A stretch of DNA of 64,000 bases from Gammaproteobacteria bacterium (GCA_965221695.1 OZ244905.1:3136001-3200000); one strand, 5' to 3'. Counted from the first letter of the stretch, positions 39,481 through 58,092 are shown. Numbers and translations are program-made. Notes: generated by a model not told the origin, from the letters alone.

Positions 39481-39674
39481 AGACTTGATTGTATTGTGAT
39501 GATATTTTCTGTAATATTCACACTAGATAATAAACGTACACAAGATTTAAGTTGAACGCGGGCATATCGCCCCGATAATTTAACTCTCGGCTATCTTTCA
39601 TGATCTCGAGATAGCGGGGAGGTCAATAAAAATCGAGATCAAACATTTGTTAATTAACAAAAGAGGAGGAGGTC

Positions 39675-41678: not shown

Positions 41679-41709
41679 ACCGAACAAACTTTTCAAAGTT
41701 TGTGACGAT

Positions 41710-41743
41710 ATCCCCGGTATCATTGGTACCGGGGATTTTTTTT
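41710..41743 (+). terminator. Intrinsic terminator after xoxF
   Basis: atccccggta-tcattgg-taccggggat followed by T run. Confidence 0.85.
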
Positions 41744-41806
41744 GAACTTATTGAATGCAAGGCCGGTCATATACTGAAATCTGTGGTGACCGGTTATAGT
41801 TGAAAG

Positions 41807-41870
41807 TCATTGATTTTGACGGCATATCCCTGTACCGTTGCAACCTCTGATTTAATCTGAGGTTCCTTAA
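41807..41870. repeat. Degenerate right part of family A element
   Basis: gtcattgattttg...atccctgta...aacctctgatttaatctgaggttcc+ttaa aligns with 50415-50478. Confidence 0.55.
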
Positions 41871-41901
41871 TAATAATTCAAGATTTAAGAGGATTTGGAA
41901 T

Positions 41902-42369: not shown

Positions 42370-42374
42370 TAACA

Positions 42375-43241
42375 GTGAAAAAATATCTGCTGGTGTGCTT
42401 GTTGTTGATGCCTGGCGCTTCCGCAATGGCGGTCGATGTCGGAGAAATGACCGTGTTGAAGGTATGCGCCGACCCGTTCATGCTGCCTTTTTCCAATCGC
42501 AAGGAACAGGGTTTTGAGAACAAAATAGCCGAGTTGTTTGCCGAGAAGCTGGGAGTGGACCTGCAGTACGAATTTTTTCCCCAGAGGATTGGCTTCATCC
42601 GCAATACTCTCAGGGCAGAATCCGATTCAGGTTCCGGCTACAAGTGCGACCTGGTGATGAGCGCGCCGGTTAATTTCGAACGGGCTGCTGCGACAAATCC
42701 GTATTATACGTCTTCCTATGCGTTGGTATTGGCAAAGGGGCGGGGCATGGATGATATCACTTCGCCTGAAATGCTGGTCGAAAAGGTTCAAGGCGGTCTG
42801 AAAATAAGGCTCGGCGTCACCGATCGAGGCCAGGACCAGTTCTGGGCGGCCGCGAACAACTTGATGGGGAGTATTGTGCCGTATCAGGGACAACCCGGCG
42901 ACCCCGAAAAGTATCCGGGCAAGACCCTGACCGAAGATATACTTGCCGGGAAAATCGATGCCGCGATTATCTGGGGACCCATCGCAGGCTATTTTGCCCA
43001 AACCATGGAAAGTGGCGAGGATCTTATCCTTCTGCCGTTAACTGATGATCCCACAAATCCCTACCTGAAGTTTACATTTACCGTGGCCATGGCAGTCAGA
43101 CACGGGGAACAGGAATGGCGTGACAAGGTGAACCAACTCATAGCCGAAAACCAGACGGAGATCAACGCCATTATGGAAGATTACGGTGTGCCGTTGTTAC
43201 CGCTGGAGAAAATCGAGATACGGGAAGATGATGATGATTAG
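42375..43241 (+). CDS. xoxJ: XoxJ/MxaJ-family periplasmic binding protein
   Basis: LKVCADP..LPFSN, GFENKIAE, GFIRNTL, CDLV, PYY.S.Y, WGPIAGY, YGVPL. Confidence 0.88.
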   Translation: MKKYLLVCLLLMPGASAMAVDVGEMTVLKVCADPFMLPFSNRKEQGFENKIAELFAEKLGVDLQYEFFPQRIGFIRNTLRAESDSGSGYKCDLVMSAPVNFERAAATNPYYTSSYALVLAKGRGMDDITSPEMLVEKVQGGLKIRLGVTDRGQDQFWAAANNLMGSIVPYQGQPGDPEKYPGKTLTEDILAGKIDAAIIWGPIAGYFAQTMESGEDLILLPLTDDPTNPYLKFTFTVAMAVRHGEQEWRDKVNQLIAENQTEINAIMEDYGVPLLPLEKIEIREDDDD

Positions 43242-43272
43242 CTTCGGCCTCAGGGGACACAGGGCTTGTTTC

Positions 43273-44040
43273 ATGTATAAAGGCTGGCAACTTGCATTTT
43301 ATGCGCTATGCTCTCTGTGGCTGATAGCAGCCGTGCCGGTTGTTGCCGAGGATGACAGTGGGGACGTGGAAGTGAAGGGCGCCACTCTTGGCAGAATGGG
43401 TGACCCCGCTGCAGTAGATCCGAATACCTTTGAGTTTGCCGACGCGGAGGTCAAACTTTGGCTGGATAATCACCTCAGGAACATAGGCAGTCCGGGCCGG
43501 CTCTATTACGACTTCGTCAAGAGCGGGACTTACGAGAAGGGCTTCAGCGATTCCATCTACCTGGATATTCTCAAGCTCAATGAGGATGGCAGCAAGGATG
43601 CGAACCTGGAGTTCTTCACTGCAGAAAGACAGCAGCAACCGCGCCGCGACAACCTGGTCGGCATCACCGGCAACCCGGTGCTGGTCGTATACATGCAGGG
43701 CGACGTGTACGAGATGAACCGGCTGACCAACGGCAGTTGGCGTTATTTCCAGCGGCGTATCAAGTCAGCGTTTGCCGAAGAAGCGAAAGTCGAGCCGGTC
43801 ACCTTTGAATATGACGGTATGGAGATGACCGGCGAAAAAATTTCCATCACCCCGTATATCAACGACCCCAGGCGCAGGCAATTCGCCGAGTTTGCCACCA
43901 AGCTGTACGAGTTCATATTATCCGATCAAGTCCCCGGGAAACTGTACCAGATCAAAACTGTCATTCCGGCAGGCTCACCAGACAGCGAACCGCTGATTGA
44001 AGAGGTGCTGACCCTGCAAAGCGCAGAATTTGCTAACTGA
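43273..44040 (+). CDS. Exported hypothetical protein co-directional with xoxJ
   Basis: Signal peptide, 255 aa, GNPV and PY..DP motifs; start uncertain. Confidence 0.65.
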   Translation: MYKGWQLAFYALCSLWLIAAVPVVAEDDSGDVEVKGATLGRMGDPAAVDPNTFEFADAEVKLWLDNHLRNIGSPGRLYYDFVKSGTYEKGFSDSIYLDILKLNEDGSKDANLEFFTAERQQQPRRDNLVGITGNPVLVVYMQGDVYEMNRLTNGSWRYFQRRIKSAFAEEAKVEPVTFEYDGMEMTGEKISITPYINDPRRRQFAEFATKLYEFILSDQVPGKLYQIKTVIPAGSPDSEPLIEEVLTLQSAEFAN

Positions 44041-44166
44041 CATTTCATTTACATGGATATACAGGATAGACAGGATGTAAAAAATTCTTCTTTATTCGGC
44101 ACAATAACTCTGCAAGAGTGCGTTGCCAAGGAAGTACTGACCAAGTCAGAGATTACCCTGTATGTA

Positions 44167-44202
44167 TTAGGAAGCACTGAGACTTAATCAGAGCTTCCTT
44201 AA
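44167..44202. repeat. Family A palindromic mini-element
   Basis: ttaggaagcactgagacttaatcagagcttcc+ttaa next to the fhcC stop. Confidence 0.65.
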
Positions 44203-44205
44203 TTC

Positions 44206-45027
44206 TCACCTGGCCGTATTGAGCAATACCATGATTTCGCCCTTGCCGTCGTTAGCAAGGTCGCCGGTATAAAGGCGTACTTCCGGGCCGAAATTGCGAA
44301 AGAACCGGTAGCGGCTTCCCATCAGCGACAATTGCTTGAAAAACAGTCGCAGGTATTCCATCTTCAACGCGCCGCAGTCTGTCAGGGTGGCGCCGATCCG
44401 GCTTGGCCGCCTGCCCAGGATGATACTCCCGCGCTTCATCCCGTAGCCGGGCAGCTTGCCGGCTTTGCCCAGGATCAATATCGTGCCGGCAACCATACCG
44501 GAGCCGCTGAAATCGCCCGCATCACCGCCGATCATGATCATGCCGCGCCGCATCCTGTCGCCGATACGGTTTCCGGCATTGCCCCAGACCGTGATCAGAC
44601 CGTCCCGCATCCCGTAAGCGCCGGTGGATGTGCCGGCCCCGATGTAATCGCCGGCGTCACCCTCCACGTCAATCCGGCCCCACTCCATATCACAGCCCAG
44701 CCACTCGCCGCAACTGCCGTTGACTTTGATTGCGCCGCCGCGCATACCGTGGCCGAGATGGCTGCCGCCATGGGCCTTGACGTCGATCTGCCCGCGGGTC
44801 ATCTGCGCGCCTATCCGGGTTACCAGTTCCGTGGTGCGGCGTAACTCGATATGTTCGGGATTTTCCCCGCTGATGGAAAACAGGTCGCCGACCCGGGCGG
44901 GCCGAGCGCCATAGGTGAGTTCGATATCGGCAATATTGTCCGCCGCCGACAGCCGGTCCGGTGTCAGCGCCGACAAGTCCAGCAGCCGCTGAGGTTTTTT
45001 CTTCAGGGTGAAGATCAAGGGTTTCAC
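44206..45027 (-). CDS. fhcC: Formyltransferase/hydrolase complex subunit C
   Basis: LD...L.PD, GxxM.xG.I.V.G beta-helix repeats, GDRMRRG, GDLA..GKGEI. Confidence 0.9.
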   Translation of the reverse strand: MKPLIFTLKKKPQRLLDLSALTPDRLSAADNIADIELTYGARPARVGDLFSISGENPEHIELRRTTELVTRIGAQMTRGQIDVKAHGGSHLGHGMRGGAIKVNGSCGEWLGCDMEWGRIDVEGDAGDYIGAGTSTGAYGMRDGLITVWGNAGNRIGDRMRRGMIMIGGDAGDFSGSGMVAGTILILGKAGKLPGYGMKRGSIILGRRPSRIGATLTDCGALKMEYLRLFFKQLSLMGSRYRFFRNFGPEVRLYTGDLANDGKGEIMVLLNTAR

Positions 45028-45920
45028 CGTAAAATGTCCCTCAGGTGAAAATGGTAAGGTCCCAATTTGCCGCCGTAATTGCCAGCGCCGACTCGATAGA
45101 TGCCCTTGTCGGGTCCGTTTTCGCAGACCGCTTCGATGCCTGCGCGCATGGCCTCGCTGATCGCGCCTTCGCTGAGGCCATCAATGACGATCTCCAGCAC
45201 GGAACCGATCTCTTCGGTGAGCTCACTGTTTACCCGGCCTTTCAGGGTTGGGCAGAACAACTCGTTGGTCGATGCCGGCAAAAACGAGTACTTGGATCCC
45301 ACCTTGGAGCCGGACCCGACGATGCCGCCGGGGAACGTGGTGACTGCGCCTTCCACTGCTCTGATGGCTTTTACCGCTTTTTCACAAGCATTCAGGCCGT
45401 GGCGGGAGGTTTTGGCCATTACCAGGAAGTTGCCGCCACCAATGGCGGGGACCACGCCGGTGGTCTCTTCACACAGGAATTCGCCATGCATCACCGGGAT
45501 GCGCCAGTAGCGGATGCCGCGCAGTATCTTTGAGATCTGGTAACCGTCGCCGAAATATCTCAGGCTTTTGCCCAGGGGCAACATGGTGTCGCTGTGGGTG
45601 CCGGCAAAACAGGCGCTGGTCGCGGTGGTCATTACCGACTGCCCGACGCGCCGGGTAAGCTGGTCCGCCAACTGGGATTTGGACATCGCAAACATGATGA
45701 TCGCCACACCGGGCCTGCCGTCAGGGGTTTCATCCGGCCTGAGCTCCCGTTCGATGTCCGCCTCGCAACCGCAGGCGATCACGGACGAGGCGAAACCGGT
45801 CAGCGAGTTGGCTGCGATATAGGCATACTTCATCGTCATGGCGGTAATGATCAGCCGCGTTGCCTTCATAGGGAAGGCCTCGGCAAAAGTATCATCAATG
45901 CTTACACCGTTAATATTCAT
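45024..45920 (-). CDS. fhcD: Formylmethanofuran:H4MPT formyltransferase (Fhc copy)
   Basis: DTFAEAF, GFA.SVI.CGCEA, TPDGRPG, LRYFGDG, GSKVGSKY, GNYGGKLG. Confidence 0.93.
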   Translation of the reverse strand: MNINGVSIDDTFAEAFPMKATRLIITAMTMKYAYIAANSLTGFASSVIACGCEADIERELRPDETPDGRPGVAIIMFAMSKSQLADQLTRRVGQSVMTTATSACFAGTHSDTMLPLGKSLRYFGDGYQISKILRGIRYWRIPVMHGEFLCEETTGVVPAIGGGNFLVMAKTSRHGLNACEKAVKAIRAVEGAVTTFPGGIVGSGSKVGSKYSFLPASTNELFCPTLKGRVNSELTEEIGSVLEIVIDGLSEGAISEAMRAGIEAVCENGPDKGIYRVGAGNYGGKLGPYHFHLRDILR

Positions 45921-45953
45921 GTTAAGGTATTCTCTGTGACCTCTGTGGCTATG

Positions 45954-47603
45954 TTACTTGCAATCATGTACCAGCAGTGAATGTTGATTACAGGCTTCCA
46001 GCTCGTCTCGGCCGATCTTGAAATTCTCCAGGCTCATGGTCATGTACCTGTCAAAATACTGTTTAAGCGGTTTCTCAATGCCCGCGTCGTAGTCCGGTTC
46101 GACCACGTGAGTGGAGGTGGCCGGGATGGCGCAGACTTTACCGTCCCTGACGCAGAGTTCGCCGCGCTTGAATACGTATTCCGGTCTGCTGAACATGGTC
46201 TCGCGGTTGGCGTCGGGTTGGTACACGGTGATATCCGCGGTGGCGCCGATGCCCAGGTGGCCCAGGTCCCTGAGCCCCAGGCTTCTTGCCGGCGCGGCGC
46301 GGGTGATAATCGCGATCTCGTACAAGGAATATTCCCGGTCGATCGAGGACAGGATGCTGGCATCGGCTGCGTCCTTGTTTATCGTGCCCAGCATGTCGTC
46401 GCGAAAACCCTTGTCCATCAGCAGCCTGACCAGGTGCGGGTAAAAGGTAAACGGCGCGCCGTTAGGGTGGTCGGTGGTCATGAACACGCGCCAGGGATCA
46501 TCGACGAGCAGGAATATTTCGAGGCCGATGCACCACTGCAACGCGTTGACAAAATTCTTGTCCCGGTAACGGAACGGCACAACACCGCAGCCTGCCTCGC
46601 ATTCAATGTCCATGCACATCCATTTTTTCGGATGGGCATGAACATGCCCCTTATGCTGTATCATCGTGTCCGCCGACGCGGTGACCGTCTGGCCGAACAT
46701 GACCTGGCCGACATCTATCGACAAGTTTGCGTTCCTGTTCACTGCCTCCGCTACCTGCGCGGCCGCGGACGAGAATTTTCTGTCGCCCTCCTGCCCGTAG
46801 CTGTGGAATTGCACGTGGGTCAGGTGCACCGGTCTGCCCTCGGCCGCAGCAATGGTATCGAGTGTTGTCCGGAAATTGCCGGGCACGCCCAGGTTGCAGG
46901 CATGCACATGCAGGGGATGGGGTACGCCGGTAGCATCCAGCGCATCCAGCAATGCGGACAGAATCGCCCGCGGCGTCAGTCCGTAATGTTTGTTGGATTC
47001 ATCCAGGTCCAGTTTTCTCTGGTTGAACTTGAACGCGCTGATCCCACCCGGATTGACCACCTTGACTCCCATCGCCCGGGTTGCCTGTATGGTCCAGGCC
47101 ACGTAATCGTTAACAAGCTGCCGGTCCTTATTGCGTTCAAGCAGGCGCAACAGGAAGTCATCATTACCCAGCAGAACATAGGCGCCCGTGTCCAGCATGG
47201 GCGTATCGGCCATTTCCAGGTGCGAGTGACGGGCGTTCATCGGCATCATCGCCGGTTCGAAACAAGAGGTATAACCCATTTCGGCATAGCGGTAGCCGGT
47301 GACGAAACTGCTTGGGGCGATAGCGCCAGATCCCGAACGCAACAGCTTGTCCGATGCGGTGATATTATTGCTGTGGTCATCCGCCAGCAACATCCTGGCG
47401 ATGTTGACCTTGCCGCCGCCGATATGGGTGTGGATATCGATACCGCCCGGCATGACGATGCGTCCGTCCAGGTCCACCACGCGGTCGATCCTGCTTGCGC
47501 GCGCCGGATCGGCGAGCCTGCCGTCCTTGATATACAAGTCCATGATGCTGCCGTCTATCCCGTTTGTCGGGTCGTAGACCTTGCCGCCTTCGAGCTTGAT
47601 CAT
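45954..47603 (-). CDS. fhcA: Formyltransferase/hydrolase complex subunit A (amidohydrolase)
   Basis: DIHTH, KVVNPGG, HVH, THVQFHSYG, TTDHPNG; ATG 47603 overlaps the fhcB stop. Confidence 0.92.
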   Translation of the reverse strand: MIKLEGGKVYDPTNGIDGSIMDLYIKDGRLADPARASRIDRVVDLDGRIVMPGGIDIHTHIGGGKVNIARMLLADDHSNNITASDKLLRSGSGAIAPSSFVTGYRYAEMGYTSCFEPAMMPMNARHSHLEMADTPMLDTGAYVLLGNDDFLLRLLERNKDRQLVNDYVAWTIQATRAMGVKVVNPGGISAFKFNQRKLDLDESNKHYGLTPRAILSALLDALDATGVPHPLHVHACNLGVPGNFRTTLDTIAAAEGRPVHLTHVQFHSYGQEGDRKFSSAAAQVAEAVNRNANLSIDVGQVMFGQTVTASADTMIQHKGHVHAHPKKWMCMDIECEAGCGVVPFRYRDKNFVNALQWCIGLEIFLLVDDPWRVFMTTDHPNGAPFTFYPHLVRLLMDKGFRDDMLGTINKDAADASILSSIDREYSLYEIAIITRAAPARSLGLRDLGHLGIGATADITVYQPDANRETMFSRPEYVFKRGELCVRDGKVCAIPATSTHVVEPDYDAGIEKPLKQYFDRYMTMSLENFKIGRDELEACNQHSLLVHDCK

Positions 47604-48835
47604 CCGGGTTGGTCCGTGAGTTGTGAGATGATGCGGTTGATGATCCCGGCGGCGCTCTGCGAACCGGAATCTCTGAGCTTTTTCAGGGGCAGGCTGATGA
47701 CTCCGTCCGTCCGGAACAGCGTGCCGGCATGATCGATGCCCGGGATGCCTGTCGGAATGAAAACGTCGGCGCTGTTCGCGCCGGCACGAAACGGGGATAG
47801 AATCACGGTTGGGACGCCCAGGGATGGAGGCGCTTCCTCGGTAAACCCCGATATCCACAACAAGCTGTCTATGTCCGCCGTGTGTGCGCCGGCGCCGGAC
47901 GGACGTCCATCGTTGAAATTCAGCGCCGCCGGGAAGCCGGTCTGCCAGGTGGCGACGCTGTGCCAGGCTGCGCCGCCATTGCTGCCGCCCAAGGATAAAC
48001 CGGCAAATCGTTGTTTTGCGTTCAGGTCGCGCAACAAGTCCTGCGCCGAACCGATGACCAGGTCGGCCTGGTCCGCCGGGAGGGCTGCCGCGTTCCATAC
48101 CAGTACGCCGTATTGTGCGTCTCTGACCAGGTCGGCAACCTGTTCCAACTTACGCGCTTTTGGTGCGGATATAGGACTGCAATCCGGCAGTTGCCGGCCG
48201 GTCAGTCGGGCGCGCAGCAGCGCCAGGTTTTCGGCAACCTCATCGTTGCGGCCGGAAATGATGAGGCGCTCATGGCCGTCGCAGCCAGCCAGTTCAGTCC
48301 GCCCCGGCCGGCCCAGGTAGGCCAGTTTTCTGCCGGCCGCAGCAAACAGCGAATGGGGTGTGTTGATGAAGCGCTCGATGAACCGGGGATAAGCGCCGGT
48401 CACGTTATTACCGATAAAGATAATCGTGTCCGCCCGATTTTTTACTTCGGCGAGAGTGGTCGTGATCCCGCCCCGGGACTGCAGCGCTTTCAGGTTACGC
48501 CAGGCATGACCTTCAGTGGAATGGCGTAGCGCGGCATCTGTCTTTTCGGCCAGTTGCAATGCTGCGCGCAAGCCGTTAACGTCTGTGCCAAGACCCGCAA
48601 TCAGCGGTTTATGGGACTTATGCAGGAGTTTTGCCGCGGCGCTGATGGCCCGTTCCACGGTCGCCGGCGCGCCTTTTATGGCCGCTTCAGGCATCGGCAG
48701 CGGGGCGGAAAAGCCCTGCTTGGCAAGTCGGCACGCATTCGCGGAGACCCTGAGTTGCCGCCTCTTTGTGCGCAGCGTCAGGTCATCGCATAACAGGCTG
48801 CAAAACGGGCAGGTTACATTTACTGCTGCTTGCAT
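47600..48835 (-). CDS. fhcB: Formyltransferase/hydrolase complex subunit B (no Mo/W Cys ligand)
   Basis: CPFCSLLCDD, TTLAEVKNRAD, WQTGFP, PGIDHAG..FR.DGV; no Cys where FwdB has SVCHG. Confidence 0.88.
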   Translation of the reverse strand: MQAAVNVTCPFCSLLCDDLTLRTKRRQLRVSANACRLAKQGFSAPLPMPEAAIKGAPATVERAISAAAKLLHKSHKPLIAGLGTDVNGLRAALQLAEKTDAALRHSTEGHAWRNLKALQSRGGITTTLAEVKNRADTIIFIGNNVTGAYPRFIERFINTPHSLFAAAGRKLAYLGRPGRTELAGCDGHERLIISGRNDEVAENLALLRARLTGRQLPDCSPISAPKARKLEQVADLVRDAQYGVLVWNAAALPADQADLVIGSAQDLLRDLNAKQRFAGLSLGGSNGGAAWHSVATWQTGFPAALNFNDGRPSGAGAHTADIDSLLWISGFTEEAPPSLGVPTVILSPFRAGANSADVFIPTGIPGIDHAGTLFRTDGVISLPLKKLRDSGSQSAAGIINRIISQLTDQPG

Positions 48836-50199
48836 CAATCCAGCAAGGCCAACATTTCGCTGACACGGGTGTACTTCTCCCTGGGTTTGCCCGCGGATTC
48901 GCCTCGGGCAATCTCGGTATCATCGATTTTTTTCCAGTCTGTAAAGCTGATGTGGCGGATATTGCGCCGGTCGAGAAGTTCGTAGCAGGCTTCAGCGCCG
49001 CGCCGCTGTTTACCGTCGTCCAGCCGGTCCAGGTCTTGCAGCAGCATCCCTACTGTTTCCACGCTGTCTGCCTTGTTGGTGCCGATGATGCCGGTGGGGC
49101 CGCGCTTGATCCACCCGGCGGTGTACAATCCCGGTTCCACCGTTCCGTCCCTGGTGATCCTGCCTTGATCATTGGAGAAAACCCCGCGGGATTCGTCGAA
49201 CGGCACGCCGGGCATGGGCACGCCGTGGTAGCCGATACTGCGAAAGACAATGCCGGTATCCAAGGTAAATGTTTCTCCGCTACCTCTTGCCGATTGCCGA
49301 AACGCCTCTCCCGATAAGCTGTTTTTTTCTATCAGCAAGCGTTCCACCTTGCCATCGCCGAGTATTTCTCTGGGGCTCTTCAGGAAAGTGAAAATACAGC
49401 GCCTGTCCTTGGCTGTCTCCCGGTCGGCAAATCCGCAGAACAGGTCATAGATTTTTTTGTTGCCGGTATTTCCCAGTTCAGCTTCGCTTTCCGGGTTCAG
49501 CGCCAGTTCGCCCGCGTCTATCACCGGGTCACAGGTGTCCAGGACACCGAATTCCTTCAGCTCCTTGGACGTGAACTTGGCTTGCGCCGGCCCGCGGCGG
49601 CCAATGACGTAGATATTTTTTACCTTGCTCTCGGCCAGCGCTTCCAGTGCATGTGCAGCGATATCCGTATGCTTCAATTCATCAACGGTCTTGGCCAGGA
49701 TCCGGCTCACGTCGGCGGCCACGTTGCCCTGGCCGATTATGACGGCGGTTTCATGGGACAGGTCAAACTGCCTGTCGCGATAATCGGGATGGCCGTTATA
49801 CCAGCCGACAAATTCCGTTGCCGTGTAACTGCCCTGCAGGTCTTCACCGGGGATGCCCAGGCGTCGGTCGGTTTCAGCCCCGCAGGTAAGAATCACCGCG
49901 TGGTGGGCGGCGCGCAATTCGTCAATGCTGATGTCCTTGCCCGCAGTCACGTTTCCGAGATAGTTGAATTGTTCCGCCTCGGCAAGCCTGGCGTAGACCT
50001 TGATAGCCTGTTTCAGTTTCGGGTGATCGGGCGCAACGCCGCTTCTTACCAGGCCATATGGTACAGGCAAGCGTTCGAACATGTTGATGCGGACCTGGAT
50101 ATCGGCTTTGATCAGCGCGTCAACCGCGTAAAATCCACTGGGGCCGCTACCGACGATAGCGACTGTCAGCGGATTGTCTGGTGTTCCTAATCGAGTCAT
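48835..50199 (-). CDS. Ferredoxin-NADP+ reductase (FprA/adrenodoxin-reductase family)
   Basis: GSGPSG, GL.R.GVAPDH, WYNGHP, GQGNVA.D, GRRGP.QAKFT.KEL, GWIKRGPTG.IGTN. Confidence 0.92.
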   Translation of the reverse strand: MTRLGTPDNPLTVAIVGSGPSGFYAVDALIKADIQVRINMFERLPVPYGLVRSGVAPDHPKLKQAIKVYARLAEAEQFNYLGNVTAGKDISIDELRAAHHAVILTCGAETDRRLGIPGEDLQGSYTATEFVGWYNGHPDYRDRQFDLSHETAVIIGQGNVAADVSRILAKTVDELKHTDIAAHALEALAESKVKNIYVIGRRGPAQAKFTSKELKEFGVLDTCDPVIDAGELALNPESEAELGNTGNKKIYDLFCGFADRETAKDRRCIFTFLKSPREILGDGKVERLLIEKNSLSGEAFRQSARGSGETFTLDTGIVFRSIGYHGVPMPGVPFDESRGVFSNDQGRITRDGTVEPGLYTAGWIKRGPTGIIGTNKADSVETVGMLLQDLDRLDDGKQRRGAEACYELLDRRNIRHISFTDWKKIDDTEIARGESAGKPREKYTRVSEMLALLD

Positions 50200-50324
50200 G
50201 ATGCACCCAGTTGGTAAAAAAAGAGAAATATATCCCGAACGCCCGACGCCGCGCAGTCCGGGGCCGTTCGAAGATGAACCGAGGAGAACCTATTGCAATT
50301 CACAGGTTCCCTGATGTAATTTAA

Positions 50325-50474
50325 CGAAGCTCTGACAAGTCCATCCTGGACTTGTCAGAGCACGCAAAACAAAAATGCGATTTTTGTTTTGCCCTCAAAT
50401 TCAATGACTTATCGTCATCGAATTTGGCGATACATCCCTGTATCGCAGGAACCTCTGACTTAATCAGAGGTTCT
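50325..50474. mobile_element. Full-length family A MITE-like element (~150 bp)
   Basis: TTAA|cgaagctctga...tcagaggttct|TTAA; left half near-identical to 57907-57975; several internal hairpins. Confidence 0.7.
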
Positions 50475-50496
50475 TTAATTTCAGGCTGGTATTTAT

Positions 50497-50802
50497 TCAA
50501 AAGCCCAGGGCAGCTTTCCTTTCGTCCGCGCCGGGCAACGGGTCCATGGTATCGGTGATGACCGGCAATACCTTGGAACGTTCTGCATTGATTTCTATCC
50601 ACTCATGCTTGTCTTCCGGCAGGTCATCTTCTTCGTAGATGGCCTCGACCGGGCATTCCGGGAGGCATGCGCTGCAGTCGATGCAGACCTCCGGATCGAT
50701 GTACAGCATCTGATCATCGTAATGGAAGCATTCCACCGGGCAGACCGCGACGCAGTCGGTATAACGGCAGTCTTTACAGTTGTCGGTAACGATTGTTGTC
50801 AT
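50497..50802 (-). CDS. 7Fe ([3Fe-4S][4Fe-4S]) ferredoxin, FdxA type
   Basis: VTDNC..C.YTDCV.VCPV.CF and I.P..CIDC..C.PECP as in Azotobacter ferredoxin I; AGGAG RBS. Confidence 0.9.
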   Translation of the reverse strand: MTTIVTDNCKDCRYTDCVAVCPVECFHYDDQMLYIDPEVCIDCSACLPECPVEAIYEEDDLPEDKHEWIEINAERSKVLPVITDTMDPLPGADERKAALGF

Positions 50803-50951
50803 GATTATCTCCTGTTTAGCCCGGATTTCTTACCAGACTGCTTAATATTGAAGGAAACCTGCTTTTCTGCTTATCGTCAATGAGGTAAATCTTATTAGCA
50901 TGTCGCCGCTACACACTGCGCACGATGCGCTGTTGCGCGATATTACCCGTT

Positions 50952-51761
50952 TTATCCTGCATATAATAGTATTTCTCCCCGGTTCATCTCAACACTGTCG
51001 CCGCAATAGCGTTTGTACGAACCCTGCAGGTATTCTTCGGCGCTTGCGAATACCCGGGACAGGCGCAACAGGTACAGCGTCATGTAGCCCGGCCGGTAAG
51101 TGCATGAATAGCTGAACGTGGGCAGTAACGGCGCATCTTTCATACTGATGATGGAACCCCGTTTCATCCCTGCGCCGGTGCGGATGCCGAGTTCCCCGAA
51201 TACGAAAATACTGCCGGAGAGCATGTTGACGCCGGTGAAGTCGCCGCTGTTGCCGGCGACGGCGATTAGCCCGTTACGCATTGCGTTGCCGGTCTCGTTG
51301 CGAACATTGCCGTGAATGATGATTTCCCCGCCGGTCATTCCCATGCTTGCGCCCCGGTAAGCGCTGCCGACCAGGTGACCGGCATTGCCGCGGATTTCAA
51401 TTCTTCCTCCGGACATCTCCGGCCCGACCCAGTCGGCGGCATTGCCGTCGATGAGGATTTCGCCGCCGCTCATGGCAGCGCCCAGGTGTTCGCCGACATC
51501 GCCTTCGACCCGGATCGTCCCCTGTGACATGCCGGCGCCGATGAATTTCGCCCGCTCCAGGTGATCACCTTGCAGTTCAATGGTTCCGTCATAGCTGCCG
51601 GCAACATTGAAAAAATCGCCGATTACCCGGCGTTCGCTGCCGTGCATCACCACCAGTTTCTCCACGCCCGCCGCATCCTGGCCGATAAGCCGGGCAGGAG
51701 TGATGTTGTCTGCCTCTATGGGCACATCCGGCGCGGCAACCTGTTTCAGTATTAAGGGCAT
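50952..51761 (-). CDS. fwdC: Formylmethanofuran dehydrogenase subunit C
   Basis: VP.EA..I.P, IGA.M..G, GSAYRG...GM.GG, GAGMKRG beta-helix repeats. Confidence 0.88.
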   Translation of the reverse strand: MPLILKQVAAPDVPIEADNITPARLIGQDAAGVEKLVVMHGSERRVIGDFFNVAGSYDGTIELQGDHLERAKFIGAGMSQGTIRVEGDVGEHLGAAMSGGEILIDGNAADWVGPEMSGGRIEIRGNAGHLVGSAYRGASMGMTGGEIIIHGNVRNETGNAMRNGLIAVAGNSGDFTGVNMLSGSIFVFGELGIRTGAGMKRGSIISMKDAPLLPTFSYSCTYRPGYMTLYLLRLSRVFASAEEYLQGSYKRYCGDSVEMNRGEILLYAG

Positions 51762-51842
51762 GTCAGAAATCCGTACGAGGCACTAAGTAACTTCTGATTA
51801 ACTCAGCGGTTACTACGATACAAGGATGTTTCCCTGATTTCA

Positions 51843-52730
51843 TCATTTCAGGTCAAGGTCATGCAGGTTGATCCTGTATTGTCCGAGATTGCCGCCGTAA
51901 TTTCCCGCGGAGACCTGCCTGATGCCGGGTTTTGCCGCGGCCCGTATCCCTGCGGCCATGGCCAGTCTGACTGCATTCTCGGTGAGGCCGTCGATCACGA
52001 TTTCCAGCGCGCAATTGACATCCGCCGGCAGGCTGCTGCCGGTCACGGCCTTCAACGTCGGACAGTAGGCGTCGTTGGTGGATGCGGGCAGGGTCTTGTA
52101 GCGTGATCCCACCTTGCTGCCGCTGCGCACGACGCCATTGGGAAACGGCAGGATGATATCGCTGATGGTCCCCATCGCCCGGGTTGCGGCGCCGGCCGCG
52201 GCCAGGGTTTTCTTCTCGTTCGTGCCCAGTATGATGATATTGCCGCCGCCCACCGATTTCTGCACGGCGAACGATTCTTCCACGGTGAATTCACCGTCCA
52301 TGACCGGGATGCGCCAGAAACGCCGCTCCCCCAGCTTCTTGCTGCCCTGGAAGCCGTCGCCGAAATAACGCAGTTGGGAACCGACCTGGACCGTTTCGCC
52401 GGCATCAAGGCCATTGAAACAGGCCGTTGTCGGGCAGGTCATCACGCATTGGCCGATGCGCTCCACCAGGCGTTTCCCTACCGATGCCTTGTCCATCGCG
52501 AATAACAGGATGCTGGCGCCGGGACGGCGGTCCGGCGTCTCATCCGCGGACAGAAATCGTTCAATGCCGGCCTCGCACTTGCAGCCGATCACCGATGTCG
52601 CAAAGCCGGTCATCGATCGCGCCGCAGCCTCGCTCCATTGCCGGGTGGCTGCGGTGACGATCACCCGCGCCCCCCACATGCTGAATGCCTCGGCAAAGGT
52701 ATCGACGATTTCCGTGGATTTTATCTTCAT
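51843..52730 (-). CDS. ftr: Formylmethanofuran:H4MPT formyltransferase (Fwd-associated copy)
   Basis: DTFAEAF, TGFATSVIGC.CEAG, RIGQCVMTCPT, RSGSKVGS, GNYGG.LG. Confidence 0.92.
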   Translation of the reverse strand: MKIKSTEIVDTFAEAFSMWGARVIVTAATRQWSEAAARSMTGFATSVIGCKCEAGIERFLSADETPDRRPGASILLFAMDKASVGKRLVERIGQCVMTCPTTACFNGLDAGETVQVGSQLRYFGDGFQGSKKLGERRFWRIPVMDGEFTVEESFAVQKSVGGGNIIILGTNEKKTLAAAGAATRAMGTISDIILPFPNGVVRSGSKVGSRYKTLPASTNDAYCPTLKAVTGSSLPADVNCALEIVIDGLTENAVRLAMAAGIRAAAKPGIRQVSAGNYGGNLGQYRINLHDLDLK

Positions 52731-54364
52731 ACCGTGGCGACCACTTCGTGATCATGCAGGTAGCTGTCATCGACTGCATAATTGGGGAACTCAATGGAGT
52801 AATAGTTCTCGAAGAACGGTCTTACCGTGGTGATGATGGATTCATCATAGCCAGGTTCGGTGTGCAGGAACTTCCCGTAAAAATCCCGGCAAAATTCATG
52901 GTTATCGATGATCTGGACGCCGGATTTGATCACGTAGCGGGGCGCGTTGAACATCGCTTCCTTGTCGGCCATCTCATCATAGATAGTGATGTCCGCATCG
53001 GCGCCCGGACCCAGGTGGCCCTTGTTGGTCAGGTTCAGGGCGCGCGCCGGACCGGCGCGGGTGATAATCGCTATCTCATTGAGCGTGTATTCACGGTCCA
53101 GCTCATTCAGTATCGTGCCGTTAATGGCCTTCTGGTTCACGCGCTTGATCTCTTCCTTGCGAAATTCCCTGTCCATCAGCAAGCGGATCAGCTTCGGGTA
53201 GCTCAGGAAGGAACCGCCGTTCGGGTGATCCGTGGACAGGACGATGCGCCAGGGGTCTTTTGACAGCAGGAACAGCTCCAGGCCGATGGCCCATTGCAGC
53301 GCATGGACGTAAATATGTTCCTGGTAGCTGAAGGGCATGATGCCGCAGCCGCTTTCACACTCCGTATCGGCGTTTACCCATTTTCCTTTCTTGAAGCCCC
53401 TGAGCATGTAGGCCAGTGGCGCGTCCGCGGTCATGATCGTCGCCTTGCCGAACATGACCTGGCCGACATCACAGGAGATATTCGGATGGTCATTGATGTA
53501 TTCGGCAATTTCCCTGGATGCCGATTTGGGATTCTTACCGAGTTCGCCCGCGTAGCTGTGAAACTGTATGTGGGCCAGGTGCGCGCGCCGGTCACCGGCG
53601 GTTTTCATCGTCTCCAGGGTTGTCTTGTAGTTGCCGCTGTGTCCCAGGTTGTTGCAGTGTATGTGCGGCGGATGGGGCAGGCCCAGCTCATTGACCGTTT
53701 CGACAAACGCATCGATCACCTGTCGCGGGGACACTTCGATGACATCGCTTTCCTCATCTATGTCCTTGACGTTGGAATTCTTCTTGCCTTTCCAGGGCTC
53801 GTCTCCGCCGGGGTTGACCAGCTTGGTCGTATAAGCCTTGGTTGCGTTGACCCACCAGGCAACGGCATGGCGAAATTCCTCTTTGCGCCCTTCCTTGATT
53901 AGCTGCTGCAGGAAGATATTATTGCCCAGCAGCACGTAAAAACCTTTGTCGATGACCGGTGTATCATGCAGTTCCTCGATGGTATGCCTGGCGCCGATAG
54001 GGGTGACGGCCGCCTCCATCGCGGTGGTGTAACCCAGGGTCGCATAGCGGTACCCGGTGGCAAACGTGGAAGGGACGGTGCCGCCCGCGCCCGAGCGGGT
54101 GTGTTCCGTTCCGGGATGCGGGTCGCGGCGGTGATCTTCGGGTTGCAGCTTCCTGGCCAGGTTTACCTTGGGGCCGGCGATGTGGCAGTGGATGTCCACG
54201 CCGCCGGGCATGACGACCATGCCGCTTACGTCAATTTTTCTGGGTGTGGAGGAGGGTGTTTCCACCATGCGTCCCTGTTCCAGGTAGAGGTCTCTTATTT
54301 CCCCGTCAATACCGTTTGCCGGGTCATACACCTTGCCCCCCGCAAGTAGAATGCAATCCGTCAT
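52727..54364 (-). CDS. fwdA: Formylmethanofuran dehydrogenase subunit A
   Basis: DIHCHIAGPKVN.AR, TGYRYA.LGYTT, KLVNPGG, HIHCNNLG, STDHPNGG. Confidence 0.9.
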   Translation of the reverse strand: MTDCILLAGGKVYDPANGIDGEIRDLYLEQGRMVETPSSTPRKIDVSGMVVMPGGVDIHCHIAGPKVNLARKLQPEDHRRDPHPGTEHTRSGAGGTVPSTFATGYRYATLGYTTAMEAAVTPIGARHTIEELHDTPVIDKGFYVLLGNNIFLQQLIKEGRKEEFRHAVAWWVNATKAYTTKLVNPGGDEPWKGKKNSNVKDIDEESDVIEVSPRQVIDAFVETVNELGLPHPPHIHCNNLGHSGNYKTTLETMKTAGDRRAHLAHIQFHSYAGELGKNPKSASREIAEYINDHPNISCDVGQVMFGKATIMTADAPLAYMLRGFKKGKWVNADTECESGCGIMPFSYQEHIYVHALQWAIGLELFLLSKDPWRIVLSTDHPNGGSFLSYPKLIRLLMDREFRKEEIKRVNQKAINGTILNELDREYTLNEIAIITRAGPARALNLTNKGHLGPGADADITIYDEMADKEAMFNAPRYVIKSGVQIIDNHEFCRDFYGKFLHTEPGYDESIITTVRPFFENYYSIEFPNYAVDDSYLHDHEVVATV

Positions 54365-54403
54365 TATTATCTGCCTTCCATCAACTATTTCAGCCTGCGC
54401 CGG

Positions 54404-55768
54404 TTACTGCATCGGCGCGGCAGCGCGCGCAACGCCACTTGCCCCGCCGGCCTGGCCGCGGGCCAGAACCAACTCGCGCACGCGTTTTCTGATCGCGGTC
54501 AGTATTTCCTCATCGGTGGGAAAAGGTGAATCGAAGGCCTTGCGCAACGTGATCGGCACATCGTCCATCCGGTATACGGTGCCGGCAGTATTGATGCCGT
54601 AGGTGCTGGTCCGGAATGCCACGTGCGCCAGCTTGCTGGTGTGGGTTGCCTTGGTATCCAGGCATATGACCGGGATCTTTGCCAGGTGGTCGATAGCCGC
54701 CTGGGGGAAATTGGATGCAGGGTCCGTGGCGATGATCAGCGCGGCATCAACATCCCGCTTCGACAGCAAGTCCACGGTGGTGAATTCTCCCGGGTTGAAA
54801 CGGGGGAAGCCGCGGCTGAAGTTGACACCGAACGGATAGCCGGTCTGCCAGGACATCACGTTGTCGGCCCCGGTGACGTTGCCGTGGCCACGTACCGGCT
54901 TGGCGACGAAATGGGTGTATTCATTCAGGTCCGTGGCCAGCGCAAGCAGCGCGCCCGAATTGAAATGCCGGCCCCGGGTCATGGTCAGGCCCATGCCGAA
55001 AAACAATACGCCGTAACGGCAGTTTTTCATTCGGTCCACCAGCTCCTCCATGGTTTCCAGGCTGACACCGGTCTGTTCTTCTATATCCGGGTCTATCTTG
55101 CGGTTCTTCACCAGCGCCCGCAACGCCCACAGCACTTCAAAGTCTTTTCCCGGCTTTACCTGGATAAACTGGCTGGCCGCCGGCGCGCTGGGAGTCCTGC
55201 GCACATCCACCAGGACCACGTGGCGATCTTTTTTGCCCCTTGGGGTGAACATCCCCTTGGCGGTGACCGCATAGCGGCCGAAGTGGCGCGGGTGCGACTC
55301 GGCAGGATTGCCGCCCCAGTAAATGACCAGGTCGGCGCGGTTCTTCACTTCACCTAAAGTCATCGTGCTTTCGCCGACTCCCTGGAGCGCGATGCCGGAC
55401 GGACCATGGCAGACCGAAGTCGTGGTGTCGATGTTTCCCCTGATGGTATCGGTAATGGCGACAGCCTGGCGCTGCGCCTCGCAGGTCGTGTCGCTGAGAC
55501 CGTAGGTAATCGGGAACCTGGCATTGACCAGGGTCCTGGCCGCTTCTTCCACTGCCTCTTCCACGGCGACAGGCCGGTTATCTATCATCGCGGCCGGCGC
55601 GTCTTCTTCGATATAGTGTTCGGCAAACCAGGCCCGGCCCAGGACGCAGGCATTTTTTGCCTTGGTAATCCGTTTTTCATCCATATCCACGGTCAGTATC
55701 ATGTCGTCACAGACACAGCCGCAGAATGTGCAAGTGGCATTTTCTACAACTTTTACGTTTTCACTCAT
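54404..55768 (-). CDS. fwdB: Formylmethanofuran dehydrogenase subunit B (Mo/W-bis-PGD catalytic subunit)
   Basis: CTFCGCVCDD...C [4Fe-4S] motif, TTSVCHGPS (Mo/W Cys plus His), TLGEVKNRAD, HPRH, RGHGNV, GT.YRMD.V. Confidence 0.9.
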   Translation of the reverse strand: MSENVKVVENATCTFCGCVCDDMILTVDMDEKRITKAKNACVLGRAWFAEHYIEEDAPAAMIDNRPVAVEEAVEEAARTLVNARFPITYGLSDTTCEAQRQAVAITDTIRGNIDTTTSVCHGPSGIALQGVGESTMTLGEVKNRADLVIYWGGNPAESHPRHFGRYAVTAKGMFTPRGKKDRHVVLVDVRRTPSAPAASQFIQVKPGKDFEVLWALRALVKNRKIDPDIEEQTGVSLETMEELVDRMKNCRYGVLFFGMGLTMTRGRHFNSGALLALATDLNEYTHFVAKPVRGHGNVTGADNVMSWQTGYPFGVNFSRGFPRFNPGEFTTVDLLSKRDVDAALIIATDPASNFPQAAIDHLAKIPVICLDTKATHTSKLAHVAFRTSTYGINTAGTVYRMDDVPITLRKAFDSPFPTDEEILTAIRKRVRELVLARGQAGGASGVARAAAPMQ

Positions 55769-55858
55769 GATTGCTCCTCATGGGGTCAGACCGGCCCGGA
55801 TAGCGCTTTGGCCTACGCAAAATCAAGGTTAAGAAACCTCTGTCGATTATTAAGCATT

Positions 55859-56203
55859 CTAACTGATTTTTTCCACCTGGACAGAAATATGTTTGGACAG
55901 CGGCATGCCACTGCCAGCGGTGTCACTTTCCATCAGGCGGCTGGATGTGGGGCCGTAGGCAATGAAAATCATGCCTTCAGGCAGGTCGCCGGCTTTTTTT
56001 GAGACGCAGGTAACAACAACTTCTCCCACATGGTTTTTCAGCCGCAGTTTATCGCCATTGCTGAAACCGAGGCGAGCCATCTCGTCCGCATTGATTTCAA
56101 CGGTAGAAGTAACCTCCCGGTACTCGTCACCCAGTTTTCCCTTGTTTAGGGAGGTCCCCTGTTTACTGGACCGCCCGGGTATCAATAACATGGTTTCCGG
56201 CAT
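55859..56203 (-). CDS. fwdD: Formylmethanofuran dehydrogenase subunit D (molybdopterin dinucleotide-binding)
   Basis: L..GR...QG.....GK...Y, G.IFI.YGP....L...T.G.GMP..K; directly upstream of fwdB. Confidence 0.85.
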   Translation of the reverse strand: MPETMLLIPGRSSKQGTSLNKGKLGDEYREVTSTVEINADEMARLGFSNGDKLRLKNHVGEVVVTCVSKKAGDLPEGMIFIAYGPTSSRLMESDTAGSGMPLSKHISVQVEKIS

Positions 56204-56346
56204 ATTCAGCTCCGCAAAAGCGCTATGAGAATCGGTAAAGAAGCCTCCGACCAGATCAGAGGCGATGGAAACAACGTGGGATATATGCCGGCGCCATAAT
56301 CCACAACGGTTTCATATCTATAACATTTTTCCCGGGAATCGTCAAA

Positions 56347-56376
56347 TGATTCCCCCGCGCTTGATTCCCCCGCGCT
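56347..56376. repeat. 15-bp perfect tandem duplication
   Basis: tgattcccccgcgct x2 in the fwdD/mptG divergent spacer. Confidence 0.8.
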
Positions 56377-56551
56377 TCTTGGGAAATAAGTAGTTCCCGA
56401 CGCTGTCCATGTGCGTGATGCATGAGGGACACGCACCCCCGAGGAAATAACTGACCGATTTATGGCACTTGCCCCACATAGGTAGTGTCGGGATTCAACC
56501 TTCTGCAATTTTCCTCTGAGGAGATATTCGGGTTAGAATATTTCCGTGCTT

Positions 56552-57544
56552 ATGAGGACGATACGAAATGATCATGCCGCTGCTGAAACGGTGAGGGTTG
56601 CTGCGCCGGCGCGGCTGCACCTGGGTTTCCTGGACCTGAACGGCGGCGACGAACGGCGTTTTGGCAGTATCGGTGTCGGTATTACCGGTTTTTCCACCGT
56701 GATCAGCGTCAGCCATAGCGAGCGGTTGGATATCAACGGCGCGCAGGATGAATATATCGCTGCCATTGCGCAAACCGTTCTGGATTGCTTTCACATCACG
56801 TCCGGTGTCAGGATACAGGTTGAAGAACACATTCCCAGGCACCAGGGCCTGGGCTCAGGCACACAGATGGCATTGGCGCTGGGCGCCGCGATAACCCGCC
56901 TGTATGGCATTGATGCCGGTGTTGACGACATCGCGCTGGCAACGGGCAGGGGCAGACGCTCCGGGGTCGGACTGGGTGTGTTCAGACACGGTGGTTTCAT
57001 CCTTGACAGCGGCAGGTCTGAAGGCCGTAGTTTACCGACGGTGGTTTTTCGCCATGCCATACCGGAACCATGGCGGTTTGTCCTGGTTATGGATACCCGG
57101 GACCAGGGGGTCAGTGGAACGGATGAAGTCGACGCGTTCAAATCACTGCCGGATATGGACCCCGGAGTTTGTGCGCAGATTTGTCAGCAGGTGTTGATGC
57201 AGATGTTGCCGGCCATCATTGAACAGGATTGCCGCCGCTTCGGCGCGGCCGCCAGCAGTATTCAGGCCAGTATCGGTGACTATTTCAGCAGCGTGCAGGG
57301 CGGGGCGTATGCCAATGAAAATGTCAGACAGGCGCTGGAACTGTTGCTGGAGCGTGATGCGGCCGGCGCTGGCCAGACCTCCTGGGGGCCGACCGGTTTT
57401 GCCGTGTTCCCGGATGAACAATCAGCGCGCCGGGCAGTGAATGATCTCGCGGCGCAGGATAACGGGTTAAGCTTCGTGCTTGCCGCGGCGGAGAATAACC
57501 CGGCACAGGTCCGCAAATCGCGACAAACAAGCGGGCTGACATAA
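56552..57544 (+). CDS. mptG: Beta-ribofuranosylaminobenzene 5'-phosphate synthase
   Basis: PARLHLGFLDL, IPRH.GLGSGTQ (GHMP), GRG.RSG.G, GQTSWGPTGF. Confidence 0.92.
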   Translation: MRTIRNDHAAAETVRVAAPARLHLGFLDLNGGDERRFGSIGVGITGFSTVISVSHSERLDINGAQDEYIAAIAQTVLDCFHITSGVRIQVEEHIPRHQGLGSGTQMALALGAAITRLYGIDAGVDDIALATGRGRRSGVGLGVFRHGGFILDSGRSEGRSLPTVVFRHAIPEPWRFVLVMDTRDQGVSGTDEVDAFKSLPDMDPGVCAQICQQVLMQMLPAIIEQDCRRFGAAASSIQASIGDYFSSVQGGAYANENVRQALELLLERDAAGAGQTSWGPTGFAVFPDEQSARRAVNDLAAQDNGLSFVLAAAENNPAQVRKSRQTSGLT

Positions 57545-57624
57545 CAGCCGGGTATTGCTCTGATTGAAGCGACCTTTCCAGCGCGGCAAGTAATACAATC
57601 GGGCGGATTACGATTTTGTTTACC

Positions 57625-57715
57625 TGGCGGAGAGAGAGGGATTCGAACCCTCGATACGCTATTAACGTATACACACTTTCCAGGCGTGCGCCTTAAGCCA
57701 CTCGGCCATCTCTCC
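57625..57715 (-). tRNA. tRNA-Ser (GGA)
   Basis: GGAGAGATGGCCGAGTGGCTTAAGGCGCACGCCTGGAAAGTGTG...GGTTCGAATCCCTCTCTCTCCGCCA with long variable arm. Confidence 0.96.
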
Positions 57716-57795
57716 TGATACGTTCTTTTTCCCACGCGCCGGCAACCTTCCTGACACCGGCTGCCCGGTTACTGGCGGCACATCTCTGTACCGTT

Positions 57796-57828
57796 GGAAC
57801 CTCTGCGACTTAATCAGAGGCTCCTTAT
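57796..57828. repeat. Family A palindrome
   Basis: ggaacctctgcgacttaatcagaggctcc+tta. Confidence 0.6.
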
Positions 57829-57902
57829 ATTATTTTACCCTGATTCAGCAGAATAATCCCATCTCCTCGAATCCTGCATTAGCTACGCCGAATAAGGCCC
57901 AC

Positions 57903-57980
57903 TTAAGGAAGCTCTGACAAGTCCAAGATGGACTTGTCAGAGCGCGCAAAACAAAAATGCAATTTTTGTTTGCTCACAAA
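57903..57980. repeat. Left half of family A element
   Basis: TTAA-ggaagctctgacaagtcc...ggacttgtcagagc.cgcaaaacaaaaatgc.atttttgttt matches 50321-50400. Confidence 0.7.
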
Positions 57981-58092
57981 TGACTGAAAGCATTTGTTGA
58001 AAAACAGCCTGGCTTCTATACTCTGAACTCATCACAGAGCATGCATAGTGAGAATGTAACATCCCGTTTGTGTTAAACTCGGCTGATTACAA

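Follow-up and report, generated by a model that had tools for sequence, protein, structure and literature searches.

A gene cluster at positions 44,206 to 56,203 of a 64,000-nucleotide stretch of DNA from an uncultured member of the Gammaproteobacteria (GCA_965221695.1, OZ244905.1:3136001-3200000; hereafter the window) combines two divergent gene sets for formyl-group processing. Judging from sequence, the set transcribed first (block 1) keeps every part needed for a molybdenum- or tungsten-dependent (Mo/W) formylmethanofuran dehydrogenase of the Fwd type, while the second (block 2) encodes a formyltransferase/hydrolase complex of the Fhc type known from Methylorubrum (Methylobacterium) extorquens. 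We lean toward an explanation in which two non-redundant complexes would act on the formyl group in the last stage of the tetrahydromethanopterin (H4MPT) pathway of formaldehyde oxidation, one delivering CO2 and the other formate.

The cluster comprises eleven genes, all on the minus strand and all with open frames, transcribed in the order fwdD-fwdB-fwdA-ftr1-fwdC, fdxA, a 297-nt spacer, an fprA-like reductase gene and fhcB-fhcA-fhcD(ftr2)-fhcC:

fwdD, 55859-56203, minus strand: 114 aa, putative molybdopterin-dinucleotide-binding cap subunit
fwdB, 54404-55768, minus strand: 454 aa, putative Mo/W-pterin catalytic subunit with N-terminal [4Fe-4S] motif
fwdA, 52727-54364, minus strand: 545 aa, putative amidohydrolase subunit, forming or cleaving formyl-methanofuran (formyl-MFR)
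ftr1, 51843-52730, minus strand: 295 aa, putative formylmethanofuran:H4MPT formyltransferase within the Fwd block
fwdC, 50952-51761, minus strand: 269 aa, putative beta-helix scaffold subunit with a predicted Fhc-type C-terminal helix-loop-helix
fdxA, 50497-50802, minus strand: 101 aa, putative 7Fe-type ferredoxin, dedicated paralogue
repeat of about 145 nt, 50326-50470, no strand: similar to miniature inverted-repeat transposable elements (MITE) or repetitive extragenic palindromes (REP), inserted between fdxA and fprA
fprA-like, 48835-50199, minus strand: 454 aa, putative NADPH:ferredoxin oxidoreductase of the adrenodoxin-reductase type
fhcB, 47600-48835, minus strand: 411 aa, putative scaffold B subunit that retains four Fe-S cysteines but not the Mo/W site
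fhcA, 45954-47603, minus strand: 549 aa, putative formyl-MFR hydrolase
fhcD (ftr2), 45024-45920, minus strand: 298 aa, putative formyltransferase
fhcC, 44206-45027, minus strand: 273 aa, GTG start, putative scaffold C subunit

An earlier note on this DNA had claimed that B, A, formyltransferase and C genes each occur twice in the same order and on the same strand, that the paralogues are divergent, and that one block is of the Fwd and the other of the Fhc type, all of which is borne out here. The B-A-D-C order is identical in the two blocks, and NCBIfam names each family twice: TIGR03121 for A (fwdA 695.3 bits, fhcA 748.7), TIGR03119 for the formyltransferase (ftr1 417.4, fhcD/ftr2 422.7), TIGR03122 for C (fwdC 249.8, fhcC 229.4) and TIGR03129 for B, where FwdB reaches 512.2 bits against a cut-off of 327.8 and FhcB, at 242.1, falls below it. 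Identity between the blocks is 29.8% for B, 45.0% for A, 49.7% for the formyltransferase and 32.3% for C. Apart from a second FdxA, no further copies of these genes were found elsewhere in the 3.54-Mb single-contig genome. Neither fdxA, nor fwdD as such, nor the repeat between fdxA and the reductase gene had been named in the note.

The assignment of block 1 rests foremost on its catalytic subunit. FwdB matches archaeal FwdB/FmdB structures at 334-394 bits (376-394 for 9sfi_Q, 8rja_B and 5t5i_B), and its SVCHGPS motif aligns with the catalytic Cys-His of the archaeal chains. The active site of Fwd B subunits is formed by Cys(Sec)118, His119 and Arg288 in M. wolfeii numbering (PMC6926001), with which Cys120, His121 and Arg293 of FwdB align, and the N-terminal [4Fe-4S] motif (C13, C16, C20 and C41) is present. 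These four cysteines and the Cys-His-Arg triad are kept in 31 of 32 Fwd-type B rows, the remaining row being cut by a contig end. FwdD scores 78.8 bits against NF042908, whose 175-bit cut-off is tuned to archaeal W enzymes, and 38.9 bits against Pfam Molydop_binding, above the cut-off of 26.8; its gene lies upstream of fwdB in 29 related loci. The best structural match of FwdA is archaeal (8rja_A, 469.3 bits), with M. extorquens FhcA ranked last (359.7), and that of Ftr1 is FhcD (6s6y_D, 310.7 bits). We sought the amidohydrolase ligands of the A subunits (HxH, carboxylated Lys, two His and Asp), matching the histidines by position only: the candidates K181, H234, H265 and D379 do not vary in any of the 59 rows of both types, and the HxH (H59/H61) is kept in 57, the other two being cut by contig ends. 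Whether the metal would be Mo or W is not distinguishable from sequence (PMC11656701).

Block 1 thus shares the Cys-His-Arg triad, the [4Fe-4S] motif, FwdD, FwdA and FwdC with the archaeal W/Mo enzymes (M. wolfeii 5T5I; 8RJA, 9SFI, 9SW6 and 7BKB), at scores of 416-469 bits for A. It differs from them in having no FwdE and no FwdF/FwdG polyferredoxin, a gene for the latter being absent from the block and its flanks, where the small FdxA and the FprA-type reductase stand instead. Furthermore, a formyltransferase gene lies between A and C, the C subunit model has Fhc-type C-terminal helices, and the host is a bacterium with four heme-copper oxidase genes.

The fdxA-fprA pair appears to belong with the dehydrogenase. 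FdxA scores 121.5 bits against NF045490 (cut-off 135) and has the DUF3470 tail; the second FdxA of the genome is 53% identical to it, whereas the reductase gene is single-copy. The reductase matches M. tuberculosis FprA over its full length (1lqt_A, 376.7 bits, residues 10-451) and adrenodoxin reductase at 343.8 bits (1cjc_A). We examined this neighborhood in 80 loci obtained with the flavoprotein (reductase) as query, nearly all of them from records titled as metagenome-assembled genomes (MAGs) of uncultured Gammaproteobacteria, and in a class sample of 401 genomes drawn evenly and searched with FwdB. The pair follows fwdC in 35 of the loci found with the FprA query. Among 15 of the 19 other Fwd-bearing genomes in the class sample (four unpublished genomes were left out), four loci are cut by contig ends, and in all 11 that can be judged the pair stands directly after fwdC, in one case with a 1.4-kb insert. 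This suggests that fdxA-fprA is probably the dehydrogenase's electron outlet to NADP+. Two loci show the reverse arrangement, the pair preceding fwd (L050, titled Gemmatimonadales, and L061).

Spacing also places the pair with block 1. In relatives fdxA and fprA are a median of 55 nt apart (range 5-400, n=35) and fprA and fhcB a median of 176 nt (range -13 to 374, n=25), the latter distance approaching zero only among the closest relatives. In the window, as the earlier note had reported, the last base of the reductase stop codon TGA (48837-48835) is also the first base of the fhcB ATG (48835-48833), giving TGATG; ftr1 similarly starts 4 nt inside the end of fwdA. The further claim that the reductase physically joins the two blocks does not generalize, since the pair belongs with block 1 and the overlap is peculiar to the genus. 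A physical FprA-FhcB complex, which the overlap might suggest, was dropped from consideration because the overlap is confined to close relatives. The fdxA-fprA spacer of the window is enlarged by the repeat of about 145 nt, which has hairpin ends and is present 100-139 times in the genome (about 92-97% identity); in four sequencing runs it shows a 40-fold depth spike, loose ends and contig breaks. A related hairpin end of about 35 nt occurs at 44168-44205, just downstream of fhcC.

Block 1 also appears to be built like Fhc, with its own formyltransferase predicted to dock on the C subunit. Every Fwd block seen has its ftr gene between those for A and C, save that of L050, where it follows fwdC. 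In M. extorquens a helix-loop-helix of FhcC holds FhcD, replacing an archaeal beta-hairpin (PMC6926001), and the AlphaFold model of FwdC (26-row alignment; predicted local distance difference test, pLDDT, 94.6) has C-terminal helices at 225-234 and 242-246. A predicted FwdC-Ftr1 complex places its interface on just these helices (C residues 220-233 and 245), with an ipSAE interface score of 0.75, where the best of three controls scores 0.00; no fewer than 94% of contacts agree between runs, and the partner pLDDT is at least 92. An ipSAE this high was obtained with 116 of 157 solved complexes and with 2 of 215 mismatched pairs, counts that hold only roughly here because we used our own alignments. 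Since a like complex (6S6Y) has already been solved, the prediction speaks for likeness only, not for binding.

The second block has the hallmarks of the hydrolytic complex. In M. extorquens FhcABCD (6S6Y), which has the same fhcB-A-D-C order, Cys118 is replaced, His119 and Arg288 are unconserved, FwdD is missing and so is the N-terminal Fe-S domain of B (PMC6926001). FhcB of the window has His, Ala and Gly at the Cys118, His119 and Arg288 columns, and the residues there vary among 26 orthologues; the triad is found in none of these 26 rows and in none of the 150 nearest FhcB-family representatives of 50%-identity clusters. Block 2 contains no gene for a D cap. Its A, D and C subunits each find their best structural match in 6S6Y (FhcA to 6s6y_A, 456.5 bits; FhcD/Ftr2 to 6s6y_D, 330.2; FhcC to 6s6y_C, 136.4, full length, residues 12-267 to 10-262), and the FhcA-type amidohydrolase ligands are shared. 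In contrast to the M. extorquens operon, fhcB is here preceded by a reductase gene.

FhcB also departs from its M. extorquens counterpart in keeping the N-terminal four-cysteine domain: the match to 6s6y_B begins only at residue 51, and by score the protein lies closer to archaeal FwdB, at 127 bits, than to 6s6y_B, at 83. All four Fe-S cysteines are invariant in 26 of 26 orthologues, even though identity falls to 36-40%, and 127 of the 150 wider-family representatives keep them, with 10 lacking the N-terminus. Because so many keep the four cysteines, loss of the N-terminal Fe-S region marks the M. extorquens form and not the family, and the solved FhcB without an Fe-S domain appears, on sequence, to be the exception among Fhc-type B subunits. 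Previous work has treated FhcB as a pterin-free scaffold and reported 149 bacterial FwdB homologues (PMC10100899).

Pairing of the two forms is common in uncultured Gammaproteobacteria, in the genus of the window and in several other families. Among 23 genomes of the genus, including the window's own, 19 have both B types, in 17 cases on one contig and the same strand, 6.4-7 kb apart. One genome has the Fwd type only (G009, 97% complete), two have the Fhc type only (G005, 98%, and G010, 97%), and only Fwd pieces were seen in G021 (77%). In the class sample a B subunit occurs in 55 of 401 genomes, and the high-scoring Fwd type (494-520 bits) in 20, of which 15 also have an Fhc-type B; four of these 15 (G165, G332, G320 and G063) are flagged as unpublished, and without them the counts are 16 and 11. 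Of the five Fwd-bearing genomes without an Fhc-type B, four are complete genomes of 1.7-2.0 Mb. Among the 80 loci found with the reductase, both blocks lie around fdxA and the reductase gene in 19, and in 12 the Fwd block with fdxA and the reductase gene has no Fhc in at least 4 kb downstream. The opposite order occurs in G034 (L095, G034:C98), where fhcBADC precedes fwdD-B-A-ftr with no ferredoxin or reductase gene between. The earlier note had allowed that the tandem might prove common and already characterized; common it is, but our literature search found no paper that characterizes it. Six loci (L024, L060, L100, L106, L107 and L108) carry an extra molybdopterin-oxidoreductase-like gene about 2.7 kb beyond fhcC, with 21-26% identity to FwdB, which is absent from the window.

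The two blocks are ancient paralogues that have diverged side by side. A tree of 59 A subunits (quick search, SH-aLRT support only, midpoint root) resolves Fwd (34 rows) and Fhc (25 rows) clades with 100% support each, joined by about 2.9 changes per site and with parallel inner topologies, which implies that the forms split long before the lineages and have been inherited together since. Gene tree and pairwise identity, which the earlier note had proposed as checks, therefore indicate that the paralogues are ancient, and in composition the blocks are alike (G+C content at third codon positions, GC3, 0.60-0.77; genome GC 0.55). The ratio of nonsynonymous to synonymous substitution rates (dN/dS) against six relatives is 0.02-0.30 for all 11 genes, indicating purifying selection throughout and not the relaxed selection on one block that the note had considered; fhcB, at 0.19-0.30, has the highest values and is the least constrained gene, as expected of a scaffold. 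Could the arrangement nonetheless be an assembly chimera, a recent tandem duplication, or a block on its way to becoming a pseudogene? Only the repeat-rich spacer (50326-50470), at which contigs from short reads break, would speak for it. Contigs of four runs from four studies span the whole stretch (a test of presence only), breaking solely at that repeat, the same gene order recurs in 19 independently assembled loci, the 17 single-contig pairs of the genus are joined by cases from further families, and the paralogues are only 30-50% identical. We thus regard an artifact or decay as extremely unlikely; synteny, coverage, open frames, dN/dS and divergence led us to reject chimerism, recent duplication and relaxed selection alike.

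The genomic surroundings point to formaldehyde oxidation. The flanks contain a pyrroloquinoline quinone (PQQ) alcohol dehydrogenase cluster, ribofuranosylaminobenzene 5'-phosphate (RFAP) synthase, mch, fae and methanofuran-biosynthesis genes; fae, mch and RFAP synthase are present at Fwd-only loci as well, and these flanking genes argue for the formaldehyde-oxidizing direction. The quinoprotein cluster (38417-43241) lies directly beside fhcC and encodes a PQQ dehydrogenase of the methanol/ethanol family (588 bits) along with a SoxYZ-like carrier, a MoxJ-like binding protein and a protein resembling pseudoazurin, a neighborhood that recurs in L015, L017, L018, L022 and L031. Convergent to fhcC lies a 284-aa open reading frame (ORF; 43186-44040, plus strand) that belongs to no Pfam or NCBIfam family and matches only 'hypothetical protein' clusters of Pseudomonadota in a protein atlas; at least 14 related loci keep it, at 38-85% identity, next to either fhcC or the MoxJ-like gene. 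On the other side, the RFAP synthase gene and a small methyltransferase-like ORF flank a tRNA gene (57628-57715, minus strand; Rfam 57.8 bits).

Elsewhere, the genome encodes an NAD-type formate dehydrogenase (alpha subunit, 748 bits) and formate-tetrahydrofolate ligase (FTHFS, 876 bits), so formate released by Fhc can be either oxidized or assimilated. The earlier suggestion that such formate can feed assimilation holds in the sense that it could do so: FTHFS is present, and family searches of the genome found neither RuBisCO nor hexulose-phosphate synthase. A pmoA/ammonia monooxygenase (AMO) family search gave no match, but its control likewise matched no genome. Four homologues of heme-copper oxidase subunit I (COX1) indicate that the host respires oxygen, and we take it to be an uncultured aerobic marine-type bacterium. 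One COX1-family match (G000:C1:1765059-1766402), which lies in a 773-aa open frame and scores only 185 bits, is perhaps nitric-oxide-reductase-like or a divergent heme-copper oxidase.

How might the two complexes work together? In the explanation that we favor, block 1 (FwdD-B-A, Ftr and FwdC) would transfer the formyl group of formyl-H4MPT to methanofuran, release it as channeled formate and oxidize it to CO2, with electrons passing from the FwdB [4Fe-4S] cluster to a dedicated 7Fe FdxA and through the FprA-type reductase to NADP+. Transfer from formyl-MFR oxidation through FdxA and FprA to NADP+ would be energetically downhill. Block 2 (FhcB-A-D-C) would be a hydrolytic complex releasing free formate, to be assimilated or oxidized by the genome's own enzymes. 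As a whole we hold this account to be somewhat more probable than its negation; the catalytic direction, the ferredoxin/NADP+ route, the docking of Ftr on FwdC and any division of labor or switching are what we infer from gene content, synteny and models. Several observations weigh against it. FdxA falls just under and FwdD well under its NCBIfam cut-off, and by fold the C type is undecided (Foldseek gives the FwdC model a TM-score of 0.89 to both archaeal FwdC and FhcC). The fdxA-fprA pair is not exclusive to Fwd: in about 10 of the 80 loci, from many phyla, such a pair stands by itself, and in L022, where 9 kb of upstream sequence contains no fwd, the pair lies beside fhc, fwd having been lost. 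A pure scaffold role leaves the Fe-S site kept in FhcB unexplained, and the need for Fwd is itself unexplained because the genome already has a route to CO2 through Fhc and formate dehydrogenase. Finally, known Fwd/Fmd enzymes are oxygen-sensitive (PMC11656701), yet this host has heme-copper oxidases.

Alternatively, in line with the possible switch that the earlier note had suggested, the blocks may back each other up, the same flux running through Fwd where Mo/W is available or oxygen is low, and otherwise through metal-free Fhc and formate dehydrogenase. The natural loss of either block, both in single species of the genus (G009 with Fwd only; G005 and G010 with Fhc only) and in the five of 20 Fwd-bearing class-sample genomes without Fhc-type B, suggests overlapping function, and Fhc needs no pterin (PMC6926001). 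Formate dehydrogenase itself belongs to a Mo/W enzyme family, however, which means that a cell using Fhc would still depend on the metal, and neither a regulator nor a riboswitch or promoter signal turned up between the blocks or in front of them: 7 promoter-like and 10 terminator-like sites compare with 7.7 and 14.1 in shuffled sequences, and an Rfam scan of 43500-58000 returned only the tRNA, with no riboswitch for the molybdenum cofactor (Moco) or any other. We consider a switch of this kind unlikely. It is very unlikely, in our judgment, that block 1 runs reductively, with reduced ferredoxin driving CO2 to formyl-H4MPT and FprA loading FdxA from NADPH. Fwd does reduce CO2 in methanogens, M. 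tuberculosis FprA reportedly works from NADPH to ferredoxin, and the Fwd-only forms occur in small genomes (1.7-2.0 Mb) related, by record titles, to sulfur-oxidizing lineages. NADPH (about -320 mV) cannot on its own drive a couple near -500 mV, however, and the cluster offers no bifurcating module, hydrogenase or polyferredoxin that might help, while formaldehyde-oxidizing fae and mch flank even the Fwd-only loci and a PQQ alcohol dehydrogenase cluster adjoins the locus.

The retained cysteines invite yet another reading, namely that the Fhc block is redox-linked, with the FhcB [4Fe-4S] site serving as a sensor or electron relay, or with hybrid complexes containing Fwd subunits. Conservation of all four cysteines at 36-40% identity (26 of 26 orthologues; 127 of 150 in the wider family), the presence of fprA before fhcB in 25 loci and the persistence of fdxA-fprA with fhc in L022 would fit such a role. 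Against it, the Cys-His-Arg positions are replaced by varying residues, no D cap is present, fhcB evolves faster than any other gene of the locus, only close relatives share the tight fprA-fhcB junction (the median gap elsewhere being 176 nt), and retained clusters can be purely structural, and we find a redox-linked Fhc quite unlikely. Returning to the two-complex explanation, a more specific and tentative proposal, to which we give somewhat less than even weight, is that block 1 encodes an undescribed FwdABCD-Ftr supercomplex of Fhc-like build, perhaps with tethered methylofuran, combining a working Mo/W site and direct oxidation of formyl-H4MPT to CO2 with electron flow via FdxA/FprA to NADP+ in an O2-respiring host. 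Together with the neighboring FhcB, which retains its Fe-S cysteines, it would then represent two successive intermediates between an archaeal-type, CO2-fixing Fwd and a formate-releasing Fhc, the formyltransferase having been recruited before the dehydrogenase was lost. The order of steps listed in PMC6926001 is the reverse.

Known systems offer partial precedents. The Fmd enzyme of the ethane oxidizer Ca. Ethanoperedens (8RJA; PMC11493965, PMC11656701) is an oxidative formyl-MFR dehydrogenase that serves an acceptor outside the usual ferredoxin pool by means of an added module; its reductase module lies within the complex and uses F420, whereas here a free ferredoxin and an FprA-type reductase would serve NADP+, as suggested by synteny. 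The likeness to M. tuberculosis FprA (1LQT) extends over the full protein and to its position beside a 7Fe-type ferredoxin gene. FprA and FdxA are said to be partners in M. tuberculosis; here, the genomic partner is a C1 dehydrogenase cluster, and the proposed direction is from ferredoxin to NADP+. Two divergent formyl-processing gene sets in one genome are likewise described for Burkholderia, where 13 genomes hold a second, phylogenetically distinct H4MPT/MFR set (PMC5020050). That 2016 survey states that fwdD is absent from Proteobacteria and Planctomycetes, in contrast to the gammaproteobacterial lineage described here, which has fwdD and a catalytically complete FwdB. Our data add a ferredoxin-reductase module tied to a bacterial Fwd, an Fhc-like Fwd block, the wide pairing of the two forms and the general retention of the Fe-S motif in Fhc-type B subunits.

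Formylmethanofuran dehydrogenases, which have been treated as archaeal, oxygen-sensitive enzymes of methanogens and alkane oxidizers, attract interest as all-in-one CO2-capturing catalysts (PMC11656701). Here, a complete, strongly constrained Fwd set is conserved in many uncultured Gammaproteobacteria, including small-genome relatives of sulfur oxidizers. MAG annotations that merge fwd and fhc may misread the product, formate versus CO2, and the adjacent Fwd and Fhc forms, with Fe-S cysteines in most Fhc-type B subunits, provide testable material on the evolution of Fhc. If the proposed roles are correct, these bacteria would oxidize formaldehyde-derived carbon to CO2 without free formate while gaining NADPH, using an Fwd that is possibly oxygen-tolerant and served by a simple soluble electron module.

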